Of a stretch of 64,000 nt of DNA, positions 8,283 to 14,200 are shown one piece after another. How positions within the stretch are numbered: the first letter of the stretch is position 1; each line of letters opens with the position of its first letter. This DNA comes from Dehalococcoidia bacterium (lineage in GTDB: Bacteria > Chloroflexota > Dehalococcoidia > DSTF01 > JACRBR01). The notes beneath the pieces were generated by a model that was not told the origin of the DNA, made no database searches, and saw only the letters and a list, made by a program, of their open reading frames with translations. The translations under genes and the position numbers were made by a program. The stretch lies in assembly GCA_040902535.1 (NCBI GenBank), contig JBBDXD010000019.1, forward strand, positions 6,773-70,772, read 5' to 3'.

Positions 8283-8423
8283 GGAGTTGGGAGAGAGAGC
8301 AAACGGCAAACGGCAAACGGTGAACAGCAAAGTGGACGACGGACAACAGACAACAGACAGCAGACAACAGACAACAGAGGGTACGTCGCTGACACCTGAC
8401 ACCTGACACCTGACACCTGACAC
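8283..8423. repeat. mosaic of heptanucleotide tandem arrays (GCAAACG)x3, (GACAACA/GACAGCA)x5, (CTGACAC)x5
   Basis: Directly readable 7-nt periodicity; the (CTGACAC)5 block (8389-8423) ends 13 nt before the ATG of 8437. Confidence 0.8.
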
Positions 8424-8436
8424 CCTGGAGTGCACG

Positions 8437-9018
8437 ATGCGGATCTCGTTGTTGTGGCTGTTCGTATTGGCGGCGCTGATCCTTCACGCCGGGCCACAAC
8501 AGGCGTTCGCGTGTTCGTGCGGCGGCTCGCCCCCGACGGACGACGAGTTGATGCGGGCGCGGCTGGCATCATCGGAGCGCGCGCTGGTCGTCGCGATCGT
8601 CGAGGGGCCGGTTGAGGCGAAGCCGATCGATGGCAGCCGATATGCCACGCTTCCAGGCGCCGCCTTCCGCGCCGAGCGCGTGTATCGCGGCGACGTGCCG
8701 GCGCGCTTCGAGATGGGGTACGTCACATGCACGAGGCCGCCCGAGTTCACCCGCGGCAGCCGCTGGCTCGTCGAAATGACGCAATTCGAGGGTCGGTGGC
8801 AATCTGACCTCTGCTCAATCACGACCGAGGTCGGATCACGGCAGGGGCAGCGCTACGTCCCTTCGATCAATCGGATCCTGGGAACGCCGCCGCTGCTGCC
8901 GAACGATGACGGCGGCGCGTCGATGCTCACGGTGGCACTCGCAGTCGCCGGATTGGGCGCGGCCGCGGGTGCGGCGGGGTACGTTGCGCGGCGGTGGCAA
9001 CGGGAACATCATTCGTGA
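8437..9018 (+). CDS. secreted, C-terminally membrane-anchored N-TIMP/NTR-like (OB-fold) putative metalloprotease inhibitor, paralog 1
   Basis: Signal peptide MRISLLWLFVLAALILHAGPQQAFA|CSC; mature Cys1, Cys3, Cys73, Cys101 (TIMP-2 disulfides are C1-C72, C3-C101); ERALVVAIVEGPVEAK ~ TIMP ADVVIRAKAVSEK; RVYRGDVPARFEMGYVTC ~ TIMP KMYKGF..IRFVYTP..SVCG; C-terminal TM + RRWQREHHS. Confidence 0.55.
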   Translation: MRISLLWLFVLAALILHAGPQQAFACSCGGSPPTDDELMRARLASSERALVVAIVEGPVEAKPIDGSRYATLPGAAFRAERVYRGDVPARFEMGYVTCTRPPEFTRGSRWLVEMTQFEGRWQSDLCSITTEVGSRQGQRYVPSINRILGTPPLLPNDDGGASMLTVALAVAGLGAAAGAAGYVARRWQREHHS

Positions 9019-9059
9019 GCGGGGCGTCATACTCGTAGGCAAGGCGGATGAGGTGGGCT

Positions 9060-9629
9060 ATGCGCGTCCTCATGCCATTGGTGGCGGCGATCAGCGCGGT
9101 GGCGGTGCTGTTTCACGCGGGACCGCAGCAGGCGTTCGCGTGCATATGCGAAGAGATGCCACATGACGACGCAAGGACGCGAGAGGTACTGGCGGACGAC
9201 CGGCTGGACACGAACTTCATCGTCGCACGCGTCGTTGAGGACCTGACGGTGCCCGGCGACGCGGCCGCCGCTGTGCGGACGCAACGCGTCTATCACGGCG
9301 GGACGCCGCCGTCGTTCGAGGTGCACCTGGTGGGCTGCAGCGGCGGCGCCGGGCCCTTTCGCGCAGGCGATGAGTGGCTCCTCGACGTGTGGCACGCGAG
9401 GGGCGAGTGGCGAGCGAGCGACTGCTGGTCCGGACCCGTGCAGTCCGGCCGTACGCAGCGATTCCTGGCGTCGCTCGACCGCGTGTCGCCGTCGCGACCG
9501 TTCGTGTGGACGGGAGAAGACGACGGCTGGCCGATGCCGGTCGCCGCCTCGGTCGCGGCGGCCGTCGCCCTGCTGACACTCGCGGGCGTATGGCGTGGCA
9601 ACCGGGGTCGGCCGGACAGCGAGCGTTAG
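9060..9629 (+). CDS. N-TIMP/NTR-like putative metalloprotease inhibitor, paralog 2
   Basis: MRVLMPLVAAISAVAVLFHAGPQQAFA|CIC; Cys1, Cys3, Cys66, Cys95; RBS GAGGTG 5 nt upstream; C-terminal TM anchor; start 9060 preferred over ORF-track 9048. Confidence 0.55.
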   Translation: MRVLMPLVAAISAVAVLFHAGPQQAFACICEEMPHDDARTREVLADDRLDTNFIVARVVEDLTVPGDAAAAVRTQRVYHGGTPPSFEVHLVGCSGGAGPFRAGDEWLLDVWHARGEWRASDCWSGPVQSGRTQRFLASLDRVSPSRPFVWTGEDDGWPMPVAASVAAAVALLTLAGVWRGNRGRPDSER

Positions 9630-9715
9630 GGCGCAGTCGTCGTGCCCGAAGCGGAACTTCCGTCGCGACGTATTCGTCCTGCTCGCGCGGGCATCAGACG
9701 TCTCAGGAGGAACGC

Positions 9716-10316
9716 GATGCGATTCGTAATGCCGATGGTTGCGACGATCGCCGCGGTGGCGGTGCTGTTTCACGCGGGACCGCGGCAGGCGTTCGCGTGC
9801 ACGTGCGCGCCGTTGCCGGACGGTCCAAGCCGCGCCCGGGAAGTCATGGAGTCCGTCGACGTGCTTGTGCTGGGCGAGGTCGACGAACGGACGAATGGCG
9901 AGCATGATCCGTATCCAACAGCGCGCGTGCGCGTCGAGCGGGCGTATGCGGGAAACATCGCGTCAGATGTTGCCGTGAGATCGGCGAACTGCAACGGGAT
10001 CATCGTGGACTTCAAGAAAGGTCAGCGATGGTTGATGGCGTTGTCGGAGCGCGACGGCGGCTGGCAGGCGCATGGATGCAGCGCAGGCCTGGTAGACGGC
10101 GTACGGACCGGGCGCTACAACGACGGCGACGTGTGGCTCGCAGCGCTCGACCAGATCGTCCCGCCTCCAACCGTCGGCGATACCCCGCTGTCAGCGACAG
10201 TCATCGTGGATGACGAGGATGACGCACCCACTCTCGCGATCGCATCCACCGTGGTCGGGTTAATGACCGTGATGCTCGGGTGTGTGTACCTGGCGGGGCG
10301 GCGCGCGCGGGTGTGA
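9716..10316 (+). CDS. N-TIMP/NTR-like putative metalloprotease inhibitor, paralog 3
   Basis: MRFVMPMVATIAAVAVLFHAGPRQAFA|CTC; Cys1, Cys3, Cys65, Cys94; RBS AGGAGG; C-terminal TM + RRARV; start at 9716 rather than ORF-track 9642. Confidence 0.55.
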
Positions 10317-10344
10317 GCGCTCCGCTGCGCCTTGCACCAGATCG

Positions 10345-10777
10345 CTAGCTGCGCGCAGCCAGCCCTGCCACCACCTTCGGCAGCGCGGCGAGCATGCGGT
10401 CCCATCCGTACTCGGCGCCGCGCAGCGCCTGCGTGCCCCACGGCTGCGTCATGTCGAAGCCCGACTGCTCGAAGAAGAGGCGCGTGCCGTCGCCGTCCGG
10501 CTCGAGCCGGTAGCTGACGCGGGTGTCGATGCCGCCGCCCGCCCACGAGTACGCGAGACGGCTCGGCTGCGCGCACTCGAGCACCTCGCAGCGGACGATG
10601 CCGTCGAAGCCGGCCTGCGGGTTCGGGTCCGTCTTGAACGTGAAGCGATGCCCGACGCGCGGCTCGAAGTCGTTCGGTATCAGCCAGCCAGCGAGCGCGG
10701 CGCTGTCTGTGAGCGCGCGCCAGACGTCTTCGGCGGGCGTGCGGGACGACGATCTCTCGTTGAATGCTGTCGGTCAT
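10345..10777 (-). pseudogene. SRPBCC / AHSA1-like (activator of Hsp90 ATPase homolog) protein, apparently frameshifted near N-terminus
   Basis: Good RBS (GGGAG) + ATG at 10777 encodes MTDSIQREIVVPHA then goes out of frame; the SRPBCC-like reading frame (…PAEDVWRALTDSAALAGWLIPNDFEPRVGHRFTFKTDP…YRLEPDGDGTRLFFEQSGFD…) is open from 10774 to 10345 but has no start codon before M at 10584; shift lies in cacgcccgccgaagac. Confidence 0.5.
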
Positions 10778-11109
10778 TGTTCGCTCCCTTTCGTCAGTTG
10801 TTGCTGAAGACGCTGCAGGTGTTCGTCCCAGAACCGCTCGTAGTGCGCGATCCAGTCCCGCACGGCGCCGAGCCCCTCGGGCGCCAGCCGATAGCGACGC
10901 TCGCGGCCGTGACGTTGTTCGCTCACGAGACCGGCATCGAGCAGGATGCGGAGGTGCTGCGAGACGGCGGGCCGGCTCATGTCGAAGTGCCCGGCGAGCG
11001 CGTTGACGGGGCGGTCGCCCTCTGCGAGGAGATCGAGCATGCGACGCCGCGCCGGATGGCTGATCGCGCCGAAGACCTCGGGTTGGCGCTCGGCAGTCGC
11101 AGTGGCCAT
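10774..11109 (-). CDS. ArsR/SmtB-family HTH transcriptional regulator
   Basis: HPARRRMLDLLAEGDRPVNALAGHFDMSRPAVSQHLRILLDAGLV; TATAAT hexamer 7 nt upstream of ATG suggests leaderless mRNA; start at internal M (11109) preferred over 11259. Confidence 0.7.
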   Translation of the reverse strand: MATATAERQPEVFGAISHPARRRMLDLLAEGDRPVNALAGHFDMSRPAVSQHLRILLDAGLVSEQRHGRERRYRLAPEGLGAVRDWIAHYERFWDEHLQRLQQQLTKGSEQ

Positions 11110-11257
11110 GCGGAGATTATAGGTAAGGCTTTGCTTACGTGTCAGCCGGCGTGCGGCGCCGTCTTCGCATGGCTGGCGCTGGCCCGGTGCCCGATTGAGG
11201 CGCCGCCGCGCCGCGTGCCACACTGATCTCGCGCACCACACCCGCGCCCGGTAAGCC

Positions 11258-12484
11258 ATGACTCACGTGCTCTCCCGATTCGTCCCGCACGCGATCCTCG
11301 CCGCCGTGGCGGCGCTGTGCGTCGTCGTTTCGGCGGCGGTGGCGGCCGCGACGCCGCTGCCTTCGGGCGACGATTACAACTCGGCGGGATTCATCGTCCG
11401 GCACGCGTGGCAGAAGTTCGCCTACCAGGCGACGGACATCTTCCGCGACGACCTCAGCCGCGCCGGCGAAGATGCGCGGCTGGCGCGCTTCTTCGAGTTG
11501 AACCGGCTGATCCGCGACGGCGAACGCGTCGCCGGCGACCCCGCGACATCGACGTCGGCGGCGGCGGCGACGCACGCGCAGCTCGAGACGTGGCGCGACG
11601 AGCGCGCGGGCATCGAGAACAGCGTCGAGGTGATCCTCGAAGGCCGGCTGACGGCGACGGTCGAGGACCTCGGGCTGACGCGCCGGTTCGGCGGCGAGAT
11701 CGTCTGGCCACCGGTGAACATCGAGTTCGAGGGCACGCCGTCGGTGCTGGTGCGCTCGCCGCGGTCGGAGATCCGCAAGGATTCGCAGCGGCTGCTGCAG
11801 GGCGACCTGCCCGTCGAGCGCGTGCAGGAGATCGAGGCGGCGGCGGAGCGCGACGGCGCGACGTCGGCGCTGGTCGTGCGCATCGGCGGCATCGCTATGT
11901 ACCCGGCGATCATCCCGCCGTCGGAGGACTATCGCTTCGTGCTGCAGGACATCGCGCACGAGTGGCTGCACCACTACCTGTACTTCGCGCCGCTGGGGCG
12001 CCGCTACTACGAGAGCGGGGAGCTGACGACGCTGAACGAGACCGTAGCGAACATCGCCGGCAACGAGATCGGCGAGTTGATGTACGAGCGCTATCCGCTG
12101 CCGGAGACGCAGGCGAGCGCCAACGCGCAGCCGGCGCCGCCGGTCGCGCAGGCGCCCGCGTCGACGTTCGACTTCACGTCGGAGATGCGCGCGCTGCGTC
12201 GCGACGTCGAGGCGCTGCTCGCTAGCGGCGACGTCGTCGGGGCGGAGCGGCTGATGGAGGAGACGCGGCTGTACCTGGCCGAGAGCGGCCGCTACATCCG
12301 CAAACTCAACCAGGCGTACTTCGCGTTCCACGGCTTGTACGCCGATGGCGCCGCGTCGATCGACCCGATCGGCCCGAAGCTGGAATCGTTGCGCCAGCGC
12401 AGCGGATCGGTGGGCGCGTTCGTGCGTGCGGCGCAGGAGCTGCGTTCGGCGGGGGAGTTGGACGAGATGCTTCACGGGCCGTAA
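11258..12484 (+). CDS. secreted hypothetical protein with HExxH motif (putative zinc metallopeptidase)
   Basis: N-terminal signal peptide; IAHEWLHHY (HExxH) with E ~22 residues downstream (gluzincin-like spacing); otherwise no recognisable family. Confidence 0.5.
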   Translation: MTHVLSRFVPHAILAAVAALCVVVSAAVAAATPLPSGDDYNSAGFIVRHAWQKFAYQATDIFRDDLSRAGEDARLARFFELNRLIRDGERVAGDPATSTSAAAATHAQLETWRDERAGIENSVEVILEGRLTATVEDLGLTRRFGGEIVWPPVNIEFEGTPSVLVRSPRSEIRKDSQRLLQGDLPVERVQEIEAAAERDGATSALVVRIGGIAMYPAIIPPSEDYRFVLQDIAHEWLHHYLYFAPLGRRYYESGELTTLNETVANIAGNEIGELMYERYPLPETQASANAQPAPPVAQAPASTFDFTSEMRALRRDVEALLASGDVVGAERLMEETRLYLAESGRYIRKLNQAYFAFHGLYADGAASIDPIGPKLESLRQRSGSVGAFVRAAQELRSAGELDEMLHGP

Positions 12485-12503
12485 GGCCTCGCAGAAGGCT
12501 GGG

Positions 12504-12532
12504 CGTGAAAAAAATGGGTTGCTTTTTTCACG
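12504..12532. promoter_or_regulatory. 10-bp perfect inverted repeat cgtgaaaaaa-N9-ttttttcacg between 11258-12484 and abiEi
   Basis: Read directly; lies 14 bp upstream of AbiEi ATG and 20 bp after preceding stop. Confidence 0.35.
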
Positions 12533-12545
12533 AATTAGATTCACA

Positions 12546-13184
12546 ATGCCTCATGGGTGGACAGTGAGCACTACGGCGACGATCTCACATCGGATTCGAA
12601 AGCGCATTGATCAGCACCGTCCTGGCTGGGTCTTCACCCCGTTCGACTTCATCGACCTAGGATCACCAAGCGCCATCGGGATGACGCTGCAGCGGCTTCG
12701 ACAAGAGGGGAGCATCCGTCGCATCGCACGGGGAATTTACGAGCTGCCGAAGTCGCACCCACGCCTTGGCAAACTCGCTCCCACTCCTGATGCGGTGGCC
12801 GAGGCACTTGCCCGCCGCAGCGGTGCGCATTTCCAGCCGTCGGGTGGGGCGGCGGCGAACATACTACGCCTGTCTGAGCAAGTCCCCGCCCAGCATATGT
12901 ATGAAACTGACGGCAGAGGCCGGACGCTTCACATCGGAAACCAGACCATCACGCTTAGAAAGGCCGCGACGAAGAAGCTAACGGCTGCGCCGACAAGCAA
13001 TCTGGTATTCGCTGCTCTTCGAAGCATTGGAAGACAGAACACAACGAAGAGGCGCGTCTCCCACCTGCGTTCAACATTATCTCCACGAGATCGGAGACAG
13101 CTACTCAAAGATCTCCCACGGGCTCCGGTATGGATGCACGAGCTGCTGCGCTACATCGCGATCGACTCCGGCGATGAACGATGA
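12546..13184 (+). CDS. AbiEi-family type IV toxin-antitoxin/abortive-infection antitoxin (wHTH)
   Basis: 213 aa; IARGIYELP wHTH-like N-terminal domain; 4-bp ATGA overlap with downstream AbiEii; lower GC. Confidence 0.7.
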   Translation: MPHGWTVSTTATISHRIRKRIDQHRPGWVFTPFDFIDLGSPSAIGMTLQRLRQEGSIRRIARGIYELPKSHPRLGKLAPTPDAVAEALARRSGAHFQPSGGAAANILRLSEQVPAQHMYETDGRGRTLHIGNQTITLRKAATKKLTAAPTSNLVFAALRSIGRQNTTKRRVSHLRSTLSPRDRRQLLKDLPRAPVWMHELLRYIAIDSGDER

Positions 13185-14200
13185 ATTTTGCTCAACTGCC
13201 AATAGAGGAGCGACAGACCTTCATCGCCGAGGCAGCAGCCCGCCTTGGCGTCTCCGAGGTTCTTGTTGAGAAGGACTTCTGGGTTTGCTGGACTCTGGCG
13301 CGGATATTCGGCGTTCCTGAGATCGCTCCGCACCTCGTGTTCAAGGGGGGAACGTCGCTTTCCAAGGTCTTCAATGCAATCAAACGTTTCTCTGAAGATA
13401 TAGATCTCTCAATCTCGCCTGGGATTCTTGGAGTTGAGGAGAGCACCCTATGGGAGGCACCGTCAAAGAAGCAACGCCAACAGCGCGTGGAAGCATTGGA
13501 GATTGCATGCATCGCCTACGTCCGGGACGACGTGCAGCCGAAGCTAAGGGCGGCGTTCCGGGACGTGCTGAACGGCTATAGCGAACAGTGGGAGTTGAGG
13601 TTCGAACTTGACGGCGCTGTCGGATCGCCGAACCTCTTGTTCTCATATCCCTCCGCCGGGACAACACCCGTCTCCTACTTTCGGAAGAGCGTCAAACTTG
13701 AGTTTGGCTCTCTCTGCGATCAGATTCCGTTCGACAAGCACGCCATCACTCCTCTGATTCAGCGGGTAATTGATGAGCCATTCGACGACTTCGAGATCCT
13801 AGTGATCGCGCTTGAGTTCGGGCGCACATTCTGGGAAAAGGCAACGATACTTCATGCAGAGAACCATAGACCAACGGATCGTCCATTCCGCGATCGGATC
13901 GCACGTCACTATTCAGACTTCGCGGCTCTTTGGAGCCATCCGTTGGCGGGGCGGGCTGTTGAGAACCGCGAGATGCTGAGATCCGTGGTTCGACACAAGC
14001 AAATGTTCTTCCCGTCGGGCTGGGCGAGCTACGACACGGCTCAGTCACCCACGATGCGGTTAGTCCCACCGAAACGTAGGCTTCGCGAACTAGAGACTGA
14101 TTACCTCGCTATGCAGGAGATGTTCCTGAAGGCGCCTCCTGGCTTTGCCTTGGTTGTCGAGGAGTTGCAGCGCGCAGAGATCGCGATTAATTCGTCCTAA
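13181..14200 (+). CDS. AbiEii/AbiGii-family nucleotidyltransferase toxin (DUF1814)
   Basis: 339 aa; LVFKGGTSLSKVF...FSEDIDLSI nucleotidyltransferase fold signature of AbiEii. Confidence 0.75.
   Translation: MNFAQLPIEERQTFIAEAAARLGVSEVLVEKDFWVCWTLARIFGVPEIAPHLVFKGGTSLSKVFNAIKRFSEDIDLSISPGILGVEESTLWEAPSKKQRQQRVEALEIACIAYVRDDVQPKLRAAFRDVLNGYSEQWELRFELDGAVGSPNLLFSYPSAGTTPVSYFRKSVKLEFGSLCDQIPFDKHAITPLIQRVIDEPFDDFEILVIALEFGRTFWEKATILHAENHRPTDRPFRDRIARHYSDFAALWSHPLAGRAVENREMLRSVVRHKQMFFPSGWASYDTAQSPTMRLVPPKRRLRELETDYLAMQEMFLKAPPGFALVVEELQRAEIAINSS

Follow-up and report, generated by a model that had tools for sequence, protein, structure and literature searches.

In a 64,000-nucleotide stretch of a Dehalococcoidia metagenome-assembled genome (MAG), referred to here as the window, three adjacent and codirectional genes encode the paralogous proteins p1, p2, and p3. 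Profile comparisons and a predicted model place these proteins in the TIMP/NTR superfamily as divergent members, and this structural assignment is solid. By homology, p1-p3 may function as surface-tethered TIMP-type inhibitors of zinc metallopeptidases, a function for which we consider the chances to be even. The genes and the parts of the proteins that they encode are as follows (coordinates are those of the window).

8437..9018, + strand: p1, 193 aa, NCBI WEB52_09690
8437-8511, + strand: p1 signal peptide (aa 1-25); the mature NTR/TIMP-like domain starts at Cys26 (8512)
8512 to 8880, + strand: p1 mature domain, structured to ~aa 148 and followed by an acidic, Pro-rich stalk
8911-8988, + strand: p1 hydrophobic stretch with the transmembrane helix (aa 159-184; hydropathy peak from ~aa 163), followed by the tail RRWQREHHS
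9060..9629, + strand: p2, 189 aa, identical to NCBI WEB52_09695 (P0008); orthologs P0010-P0013
9060-9140, + strand: p2 signal peptide, with the mature start CIC at 9141
9525-9593, + strand: p2 hydrophobic stretch with the transmembrane helix, followed by the basic C-terminal tail RGNRGRPDSER
9717..10316, + strand: p3, 199 aa, identical to NCBI WEB52_09700 (P0009); orthologs P0014-P0020
9717-9797, + strand: p3 signal peptide, with the mature start CTC at 9798
10224-10298, + strand: p3 hydrophobic stretch with the transmembrane helix, preceded by a longer Pro-rich, acidic stalk and followed by the tail RRARV

The starts of the three genes, each with a ribosome-binding site, coincide with the NCBI calls WEB52_09690/09695/09700, all of which are annotated as hypothetical proteins. 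The p2 start, which is also the NCBI start, has the ribosome-binding site GAGGTGG, and the maximal open reading frame (ORF) begins at 9048 and comprises 193 aa; for p3, AGGAGG is located just upstream of the start, and the maximal ORF begins at 9642. An earlier first-pass annotation of the window had recognized the codirectional array and given the correct length for p1, while its lengths for p2 and p3 (190 and 200 aa) were each off by one. We also recovered the other sequence features that it had listed. The three signal peptides end in HAGP(Q/R)QAFA and are followed by CSC in p1, CIC in p2, and CTC in p3; two further cysteines are present in each ectodomain, exactly at the positions given (73/101 in p1, 66/95 in p2, and 65/94 in p3, counted from Cys1); and each C terminus consists of a hydrophobic run of at least 19 residues and a basic tail. 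In addition, p3 contains an extra Cys at mature position 162, i.e., within the transmembrane helix.

Relationship to TIMPs and the wider family

An AlphaFold2 model of mature p1, generated with a 20-sequence alignment, had a predicted local distance difference test (pLDDT) score of 89.5 and a predicted template-modeling (pTM) score of 0.84, and has the order helix, five strands, helix. This predicted model has the N-TIMP/NTR topology of a five-stranded OB-fold beta-barrel with flanking helices. Although the Foldseek E-values were weak (~1e-2), the best template-modeling (TM) scores were obtained with N-TIMP-3 (0.55/0.60), TIMP-1, C345C, and NtA. The structural matches ranking above generic OB folds were the C3/C4/C5 C345C domains, the PCOLCE NTR, agrin NtA, TIMP-1, and meteorin, whereas generic OB folds (SSB, RPA, and CusF/SilF) ranked lower and aligned over about 60-80 residues compared with 100-109 for NTR modules. 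Compared to canonical NTR modules, p1-p3 have the fold; however, they have four cysteines instead of the six-Cys pattern, and the domain is N-terminal and stand-alone rather than part of a multidomain protein.

The OB-fold core also bears on the alternative that the Cys-x-Cys, alone or together with the two remaining cysteines, binds metal or is redox active and that p1-p3 are surface Cu, Zn, or thiol-redox OB-fold proteins comparable to CusF and SilF. The matches to metallochaperone-type OB folds span only 66-75 residues, as opposed to 100-109 for NTR modules, and the four cysteines align with TIMP disulfide partners in one alignment (see below). The Met, His, and Trp ligands of CusF-type sites are not conserved in the p1-p3 family, and the syntenic metagenomic contig L001 lacks the ArsR and AHSA1 genes found beside the trio. 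We consider this alternative very improbable.

To define the wider family, an exhaustive hidden Markov model search with a profile of the mature ectodomain was used. This search identified 83 representatives at E ≤ 1e-3 among 1.84 billion, most of which are 180-215 aa long and have a profile match beginning at residue 25-29; the prokaryotic branch, which is unannotated, comprises at least 83 clusters at 50% identity. The 85 sequences examined below are 80 of these representatives (P0023, P0027, and P0032 were left out) and five close members, including p1-p3. A C-x-C at about residue 25-30 is present in 68 of the 85, in agreement with the earlier expectation that homologs keep this start, and the residue between Cys1 and Cys3 is Ser in 44 and Thr in 14 of these (58/68), as in the CTC/CSC of TIMPs. 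The long multi-repeat matches P0041, P0093, P0096, and P0097 were rejected as false positives because they have a DGGW QW-like motif and belong to prenyltransferase or TED families. The only matches in a sequence profile search of the PDB, to AstC and squalene-hopene cyclase, were spurious and due to the QW-like "DGGW" motif.

Ten of the 85 family sequences match the Pfam TIMP profile PF00965, which has a gathering threshold of 23.1 bits, and five of them (P0070, P0090, P0079, P0083, and P0051) exceed the gathering score with 26.4-36.7 bits. In these five relatives, the match begins at profile position 2-3, which corresponds to the C-x-C. None of the 85 sequences matches Pfam NTR. An hhalign comparison of the family profile with human N-TIMP-1/2/3 together with the five PF00965-passing relatives gave a probability of 97.9% and an E-value of 3.9e-13 over 92 columns extending from Cys1 to the last Cys (of the three human sequences, that of TIMP-1 was verified as identical to PDB 1d2b). 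Because Pfam TIMP links to p1-p3 only through the five distant relatives, the homology of p1-p3 to TIMPs is transitive and not direct.

These data bear out the OB-fold/NTR similarity proposed in the first-pass annotation and its local motif alignments to TIMPs, which hhalign reproduced (ERALVVAIVEG with SDLVIRAKFVG, ERVYRG with TKMYKG, and the strand before the last Cys). For the TIMP-like cysteine spacing that it had also proposed, two alignments differ: in a weaker local alignment with the human TIMPs alone, C1, C3, C73, and C101 of p1 fall on Cys1, Cys3, Cys70, and Cys99 of TIMP-1, but in the stronger alignment (97.9%), C73 is three columns (loop positions) off Cys70.

Word-indexed searches identified 23 close relatives only, all of which derive from metagenomes or MAGs and none of which has a Pfam domain. 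They form three clades, one per paralog, and clade members in other samples are 65-88% identical to p1 and p3 of the window. Among 20 members from several metagenomes, the A-x-A before Cys1, all four cysteines, the Pro at mature position 8, and the Trp before the last Cys are invariant; judged from these sequences, the cysteine/signal pattern of p1-p3 is not due to chance. Cluster look-up of the relatives returned only "hypothetical protein" and one accession, WP_336212277.1 from Nonomuraea (Actinomycetota). Two pattern scans of GTDB representative genomes detected no family relative, a scan of metagenomes detected two short loci only, and a scan of viral contigs detected neither family relatives nor a phage association.

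The mature domains of p1, p2, and p3 are 27-32% identical in all three pairs, supporting that the triplication is old, and the p1-p2-p3 order recurs on contigs L017 and L019 from two other samples. The array is old and has been maintained. The first-pass annotation had considered p2 and p3 to be the most recent pair, which is contradicted by the similar divergence in all pairs of mature domains; only the first 90 nt of p2 (9060-9149) and p3 (9717-9806) are nearly identical (77/90 positions), while the remainder is ~50% identical. The similarity of the two 5' ends suggests gene conversion of, or selection on, the signal-peptide region.

Predicted processing and membrane anchoring, and a possible mode of action

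The signal peptides of p1-p3 have a short, positively charged n-region (MR) and an h-region of 14-18 residues. In the c-region, Gly-Pro at -7/-6 acts as helix breaker, polar Gln-Gln follows (Arg-Gln in p3), and both -3 and -1 are Ala, as in a textbook signal peptidase I site; based on the -3/-1 rule, cleavage is predicted to occur directly before Cys1. All three proteins would then have the mature N terminus Cys1-X-Cys3, as A-F-A is followed by C-(S/I/T)-C. Among the 68 C-x-C sequences, Ala is present at -3 in 55 and at -1 in 63, and the c-region LFHAGPQQA(F/Y/W/L)A is kept even among relatives that are <30% identical. Signal peptides are not usually conserved to this degree, and selection for exact cleavage would account for it. 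Appending one residue to the N terminus of a TIMP abolishes inhibition. In TIMPs, the zinc is bound by the alpha-amino group of Cys1, and this Cys1-zinc mechanism has been described (PMC9409782).

A Cys directly after a signal peptide could also be a lipoprotein cysteine, in which case signal peptidase II would cut before it, Cys1 would carry a diacylglyceryl group, and the N terminus would be buried and form no TIMP wedge; 3 of the 68 C-x-C sequences do fit a strict lipobox. Q-A-F-A-C, however, fails not only the strict lipobox but also the permissive PROSITE and G+LPP patterns, having Gln at -4, Ala at -3, and Phe at -2. Moreover, the C-terminal transmembrane anchor would make a lipid anchor redundant, and in TIMPs, the Cys aligned with Cys1 is disulfide bonded. 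We regard a lipoprotein as scarcely credible, in line with the A-x-A site, and not a lipobox, proposed originally.

A C-terminal transmembrane helix is present in 51 of the 68 C-x-C sequences. In p1-p3, a Pro-rich, acidic stalk of 25-45 residues separates the domain from the membrane, and the helix together with the Arg-rich tail points to a type I orientation, i.e., N-out and C-in. We note a conserved acidic motif, G/N-(D/E)-D-(D/G), just N-terminal of the C-terminal helix, shared by the close family and many of the distant relatives (in the window, e.g., at 8890-8920, 9505-9530, and 10195-10225). A dedicated C-terminal sorting signal is not supported, as LPXTG and GVDTG_CTERM (NCBIfam) scored far under their cut-offs. 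Searches of p1-p3 against Pfam and NCBIfam assigned no family and gave only sub-threshold, anchor-like C-terminal matches, e.g., to MtfM with 20.6 bits (cut-off, 37.5).

If p1-p3 are inhibitors, they could act as follows. Signal peptidase I would cleave the Sec signal peptide behind A-F-A, giving a mature chain that begins with Cys1-x-Cys3, and the transmembrane helix and positive-inside tail would tether the protein via the stalk on the outer face of the cell membrane of this monoderm Chloroflexota bacterium. The ectodomain would consist of one OB-fold domain of the NTR/TIMP type, a homolog of the inhibitory N-domain in animal TIMPs, with two disulfides, predicted to connect Cys1 to Cys65-73 and Cys3 to Cys94-101, stapling the N terminus. 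For mechanism and ALTERNATIVES, the rigid N-terminal ridge would enter the active-site cleft of an extracellular zinc metallopeptidase, where Cys1 would chelate the zinc through its free alpha-amino and carbonyl groups. Residue 2 (S, I, or T) would point toward S1', and residues 2 and 4-6 would read the primed subsites. Because p1-p3 differ at the ridge residues (2, 4-6, and those before the third Cys), they would cover different proteases. The outcome would be a cell surface shielded from secreted metalloproteases, or local control of such enzymes, which could be the cell's own or those of neighbors.

The residues at mature positions 4-6 are GG(S/G), E(E/Q)(M/I), and APL in the three clades, i.e., they are clade specific and conserved within a clade, and the residues at the third Cys in the window are VTC (p1), VGC (p2), and ANC (p3). 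Clade-specific ridge residues that are kept within clades are the pattern expected if the paralogs differ in specificity.

The neighborhood of the trio

The genes flanking the trio, as identified with Pfam where a family is named, are as follows.

Upstream of the trio: a RidA-like gene, a gene for a GH42-like secreted protein, and an HIT-family gene
10345..11259, - strand: an AHSA1/SRPBCC-like gene and a gene for an ArsR-family regulator, between the trio and the HExxH gene
11258..12484, + strand: gene for an HExxH protein of 405-408 aa with an N-terminal transmembrane anchor and the motif HEWLHH

The HExxH protein has no sequence match in Pfam, NCBIfam, or the PDB. Among the scored candidates, 449 homologs were over the E-value threshold, and those with a source name are from Dehalococcoidia/Chloroflexota; HEWxH and a downstream N-E-T (Glu) are invariant in the homologs. 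Based on these sequence data, the protein is a putative gluzincin-like metallopeptidase of an uncharacterized Dehalococcoidia-wide family. In the 64-kb window, its gene is the only credible HExxH gene, and there is no metzincin gene.

Comparison with other contigs suggests how this neighborhood arose. L001 has a single p3-type gene followed, 152 nt on, by an HExxH gene that is 82% identical to that of the window, while the ArsR and AHSA1 genes are absent. In the more distant Dehalococcoidia genomes L005, L006, and L008, the HIT and HExxH genes are adjacent (one gene apart in L006) without a TIMP-like ORF, which supports that the TIMP-like genes were inserted beside a pre-existing HExxH gene. 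The contig carrying P0014 has a p3-type gene followed by AHSA1 and ArsR genes arranged as in the window. The GC content at third codon positions (GC3) is 0.76-0.84 for the trio and 0.77 for the ArsR/AHSA1 pair compared with 0.90-0.93 for the flanking core genes. The low GC3 of the trio fits with acquired DNA, although these are still real genes with orthologs. Overall, 8437-11259 looks like a small acquired island that was built in two steps and interrupts an HIT-HExxH junction conserved in other Dehalococcoidia.

The adjacency of the trio and the HExxH gene is suggestive, but the link is weak. We rejected the HExxH protein as a firm cognate target because HIT-HExxH is an ancestral junction in genomes without a TIMP-like ORF. 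Our survey of neighbors covered L001-L004, L010-L017, and the P0014 contig. Other family members are single genes among unrelated neighbors, i.e., genes for cupin, amidohydrolase, methyltransferase, RelA/SpoT, PAS-GAF, glycosyltransferase, and acetyltransferase proteins. A gene for TldD/PmbA, which is cytoplasmic, beside the L010 gene and an M56 gene 3.4 kb off in L015 were judged to be coincidental. If p1-p3 have targets, these could be proteases encoded at other sites in the genome or secreted proteases of other organisms.

Additional features were observed around these genes. Directly upstream of p1, 8299-8424 contains three successive heptamer tandem arrays (GCAAACG x4.7, GACAACA x5.3, and CTGACAC x5.1), the last of which ends 12 nt before the p1 start codon, and positions 1-70 of L017 have heptamer arrays (GATGGAC and GACAACA types) also upstream of a p1-type gene. 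The arrays upstream of p1 could be regulatory or slippage prone. The AHSA1/SRPBCC-like gene (10345-10777, - strand) has an apparent frameshift near its 5' end: the start MTDSIQREIVVPHA and the remainder of the domain are in different frames. The gene is thus either a pseudogene or misassembled in the MAG. Downstream of the HExxH gene, the maximal ORF at 12345-13184 encodes a DUF6088/AbiEi-antitoxin-like domain (residues 83-250) and overlaps a 339-aa ORF at 13181-14200 by 4 nt; the GC content decreases to 0.60 here. This ORF pair (12345-14200) could be an AbiE-type toxin-antitoxin or abortive-infection module.

Proposed inhibition, its alternatives, and comparison with known systems

Several observations weigh against TIMP-type inhibition by p1-p3. 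At the sequence level, p1-p3 have no match to Pfam TIMP PF00965 even at E-values up to 10, and the hhalign local alignment with the three human TIMPs alone is weak (E-value, 0.011; probability, 3.8%). At the structural level, the third N-TIMP disulfide (Cys13-Cys124) and the C-terminal three-disulfide domain of TIMPs are absent from p1-p3. With respect to targets, neither a metzincin nor another secreted protease was found as a conserved neighbor in nine independent contexts, the HExxH gene family is widespread in genomes without TIMP-like genes, and gluzincins, which the adjacent HExxH protein resembles, are not known to be inhibited by TIMPs. Finally, many NTR modules (agrin NtA, C345C, netrin, and sFRP) are binding modules and not inhibitors.

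The last point leads to the alternative that the ectodomain is an NTR-fold binding module without inhibitory activity, i.e., part of a surface receptor or adhesin for a protein or glycan ligand, in which the N-terminal disulfides are structural only. Precedents are the binding of laminin by agrin NtA and the protein-protein contacts made by C345C and netrin modules. Non-inhibitory NTR domains are generally not located at the extreme mature N terminus with C-(S/T)-C immediately after a signal-peptidase site. Further, the C-x-C and the cleavage region are the most conserved part of the p1-p3 family, and the sequence profiles connect to Pfam TIMP and not to Pfam NTR. On balance, we find a pure binding module rather unlikely. 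The known non-inhibitory modules (C345C, PCOLCE NTR, agrin NtA, meteorin, and netrin) are internal or C-terminal domains of large eukaryotic proteins, usually have six cysteines, and lack a free N-terminal C-x-C.

The inhibitor function can also be phrased more specifically, namely that p1-p3 are genuine prokaryotic, surface-tethered, Cys1-chelating TIMPs of Chloroflexota and Actinomycetota that inhibit zinc metallopeptidases and that the trio represents three specificities, one or more of which may be directed against a class whose sensitivity to TIMPs is not known, such as that of the adjacent gluzincin-like peptidase. In this specific form, we regard the proposal as tentative and doubtful.

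TIMPs are described as a metazoan family (PMC9409782, PMC4860685), and the authors of a study of the Listeria Mtz-Tim pair reported that they had found no earlier record of TIMP-like structures in bacteria (PMC8235301). That study was the only one found in our literature search for bacterial TIMPs, and it corrects the claim in the first-pass annotation that no bacterial TIMP-like protein had been characterized. Listeria Tim is a TIMP-like lipoprotein that is cleaved by its partner metzincin and is a substrate/effector rather than a demonstrated inhibitor (PMC8235301). By analogy, p1-p3 could be protease substrates or pro-factors that are clipped by a metallopeptidase, possibly the HExxH neighbor, with the released NTR domain acting on the cell envelope. 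The only studied bacterial TIMP-like protein behaves in this way (PMC8235301), the long Pro-rich acidic stalk could be a sheddase site, and a membrane-anchored HExxH gene is located directly downstream in L001. However, Listeria Tim has an N-terminal lipobox anchor and lacks C-x-C at the mature end, and its TIMP similarity was detected by threading only (PMC8235301). Moreover, there is no metzincin gene with the trio, insertion into the HIT-HExxH junction accounts for the adjacency of the HExxH gene, and no phage association was found. We judge this alternative to be improbable.

Both similarities and differences are evident when p1-p3 are compared to known systems. Like p1-p3, Tim of Listeria monocytogenes comes from a bacterium, is tethered to the membrane, and has a predicted TIMP-like domain; it has been discussed together with a zinc metalloprotease (PMC8235301). 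Unlike p1-p3, Tim has the N-terminal lipobox LTAC, its TIMP-like part is released by cleavage ~50 residues in, and its gene always comes with a metzincin gene and is linked to phages or mobile elements (PMC8235301), whereas the trio has no adjacent metzincin gene and no relatives on viral contigs. The Pseudomonas/Serratia APRin/Inh proteins are bacterial inhibitors that insert N-terminal residues into a metzincin active site and are thus functionally analogous (PMC8235301); however, they are unrelated eight-stranded beta-barrels that are periplasmic, soluble, and encoded beside their own protease. Vertebrate N-TIMP-1/-2/-3 are only 12-16% identical to p1-p3, which PF00965 does not score. TIMPs are soluble or matrix bound and have three N-domain disulfides and a C-domain, whereas p1-p3 are prokaryotic, are predicted to have two disulfides, and have a C-terminal transmembrane anchor. 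The layout of p1-p3 is also that of the uncharacterized PF00965-passing prokaryotic relatives, which share the A-x-A signal peptide end, C-S-C, four cysteines, and often a C-terminal transmembrane helix with an Arg-rich tail. These relatives have a TIMP-1-like "CGY" after the third Cys and are mostly encoded by single genes, whereas the window subfamily has TC(T), GC(S), or NCNG at this position and a tandem trio. Bacterial TIMP domains are known at the database level, as some prokaryotic proteins pass Pfam TIMP, yet these are unstudied. New here, as judged from the sequences, is a subfamily that is below Pfam detection, is predicted to have two rather than three N-domain disulfides, has a C-terminal membrane anchor, and is triplicated.

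The prokaryotic branch keeps hallmarks of TIMPs, i.e., the exact signal-peptidase site, Cys-(S/T)-Cys, and, as predicted, the two disulfides stapling the N terminus, and this fold and homology would surprise many TIMP specialists. If p1-p3 are not inhibitors, the NTR fold with a free C-x-C N terminus has another role. If p1-p3 are inhibitors, they would provide a directly testable bacterial model of TIMP evolution, an added class of surface-displayed protease defense in environmental monoderm bacteria, and small two-disulfide TIMP scaffolds for engineering. If they are genuine prokaryotic TIMPs, the inhibitory mechanism would predate, or have been exchanged with, the Metazoa, which are now regarded as the origin of the family.

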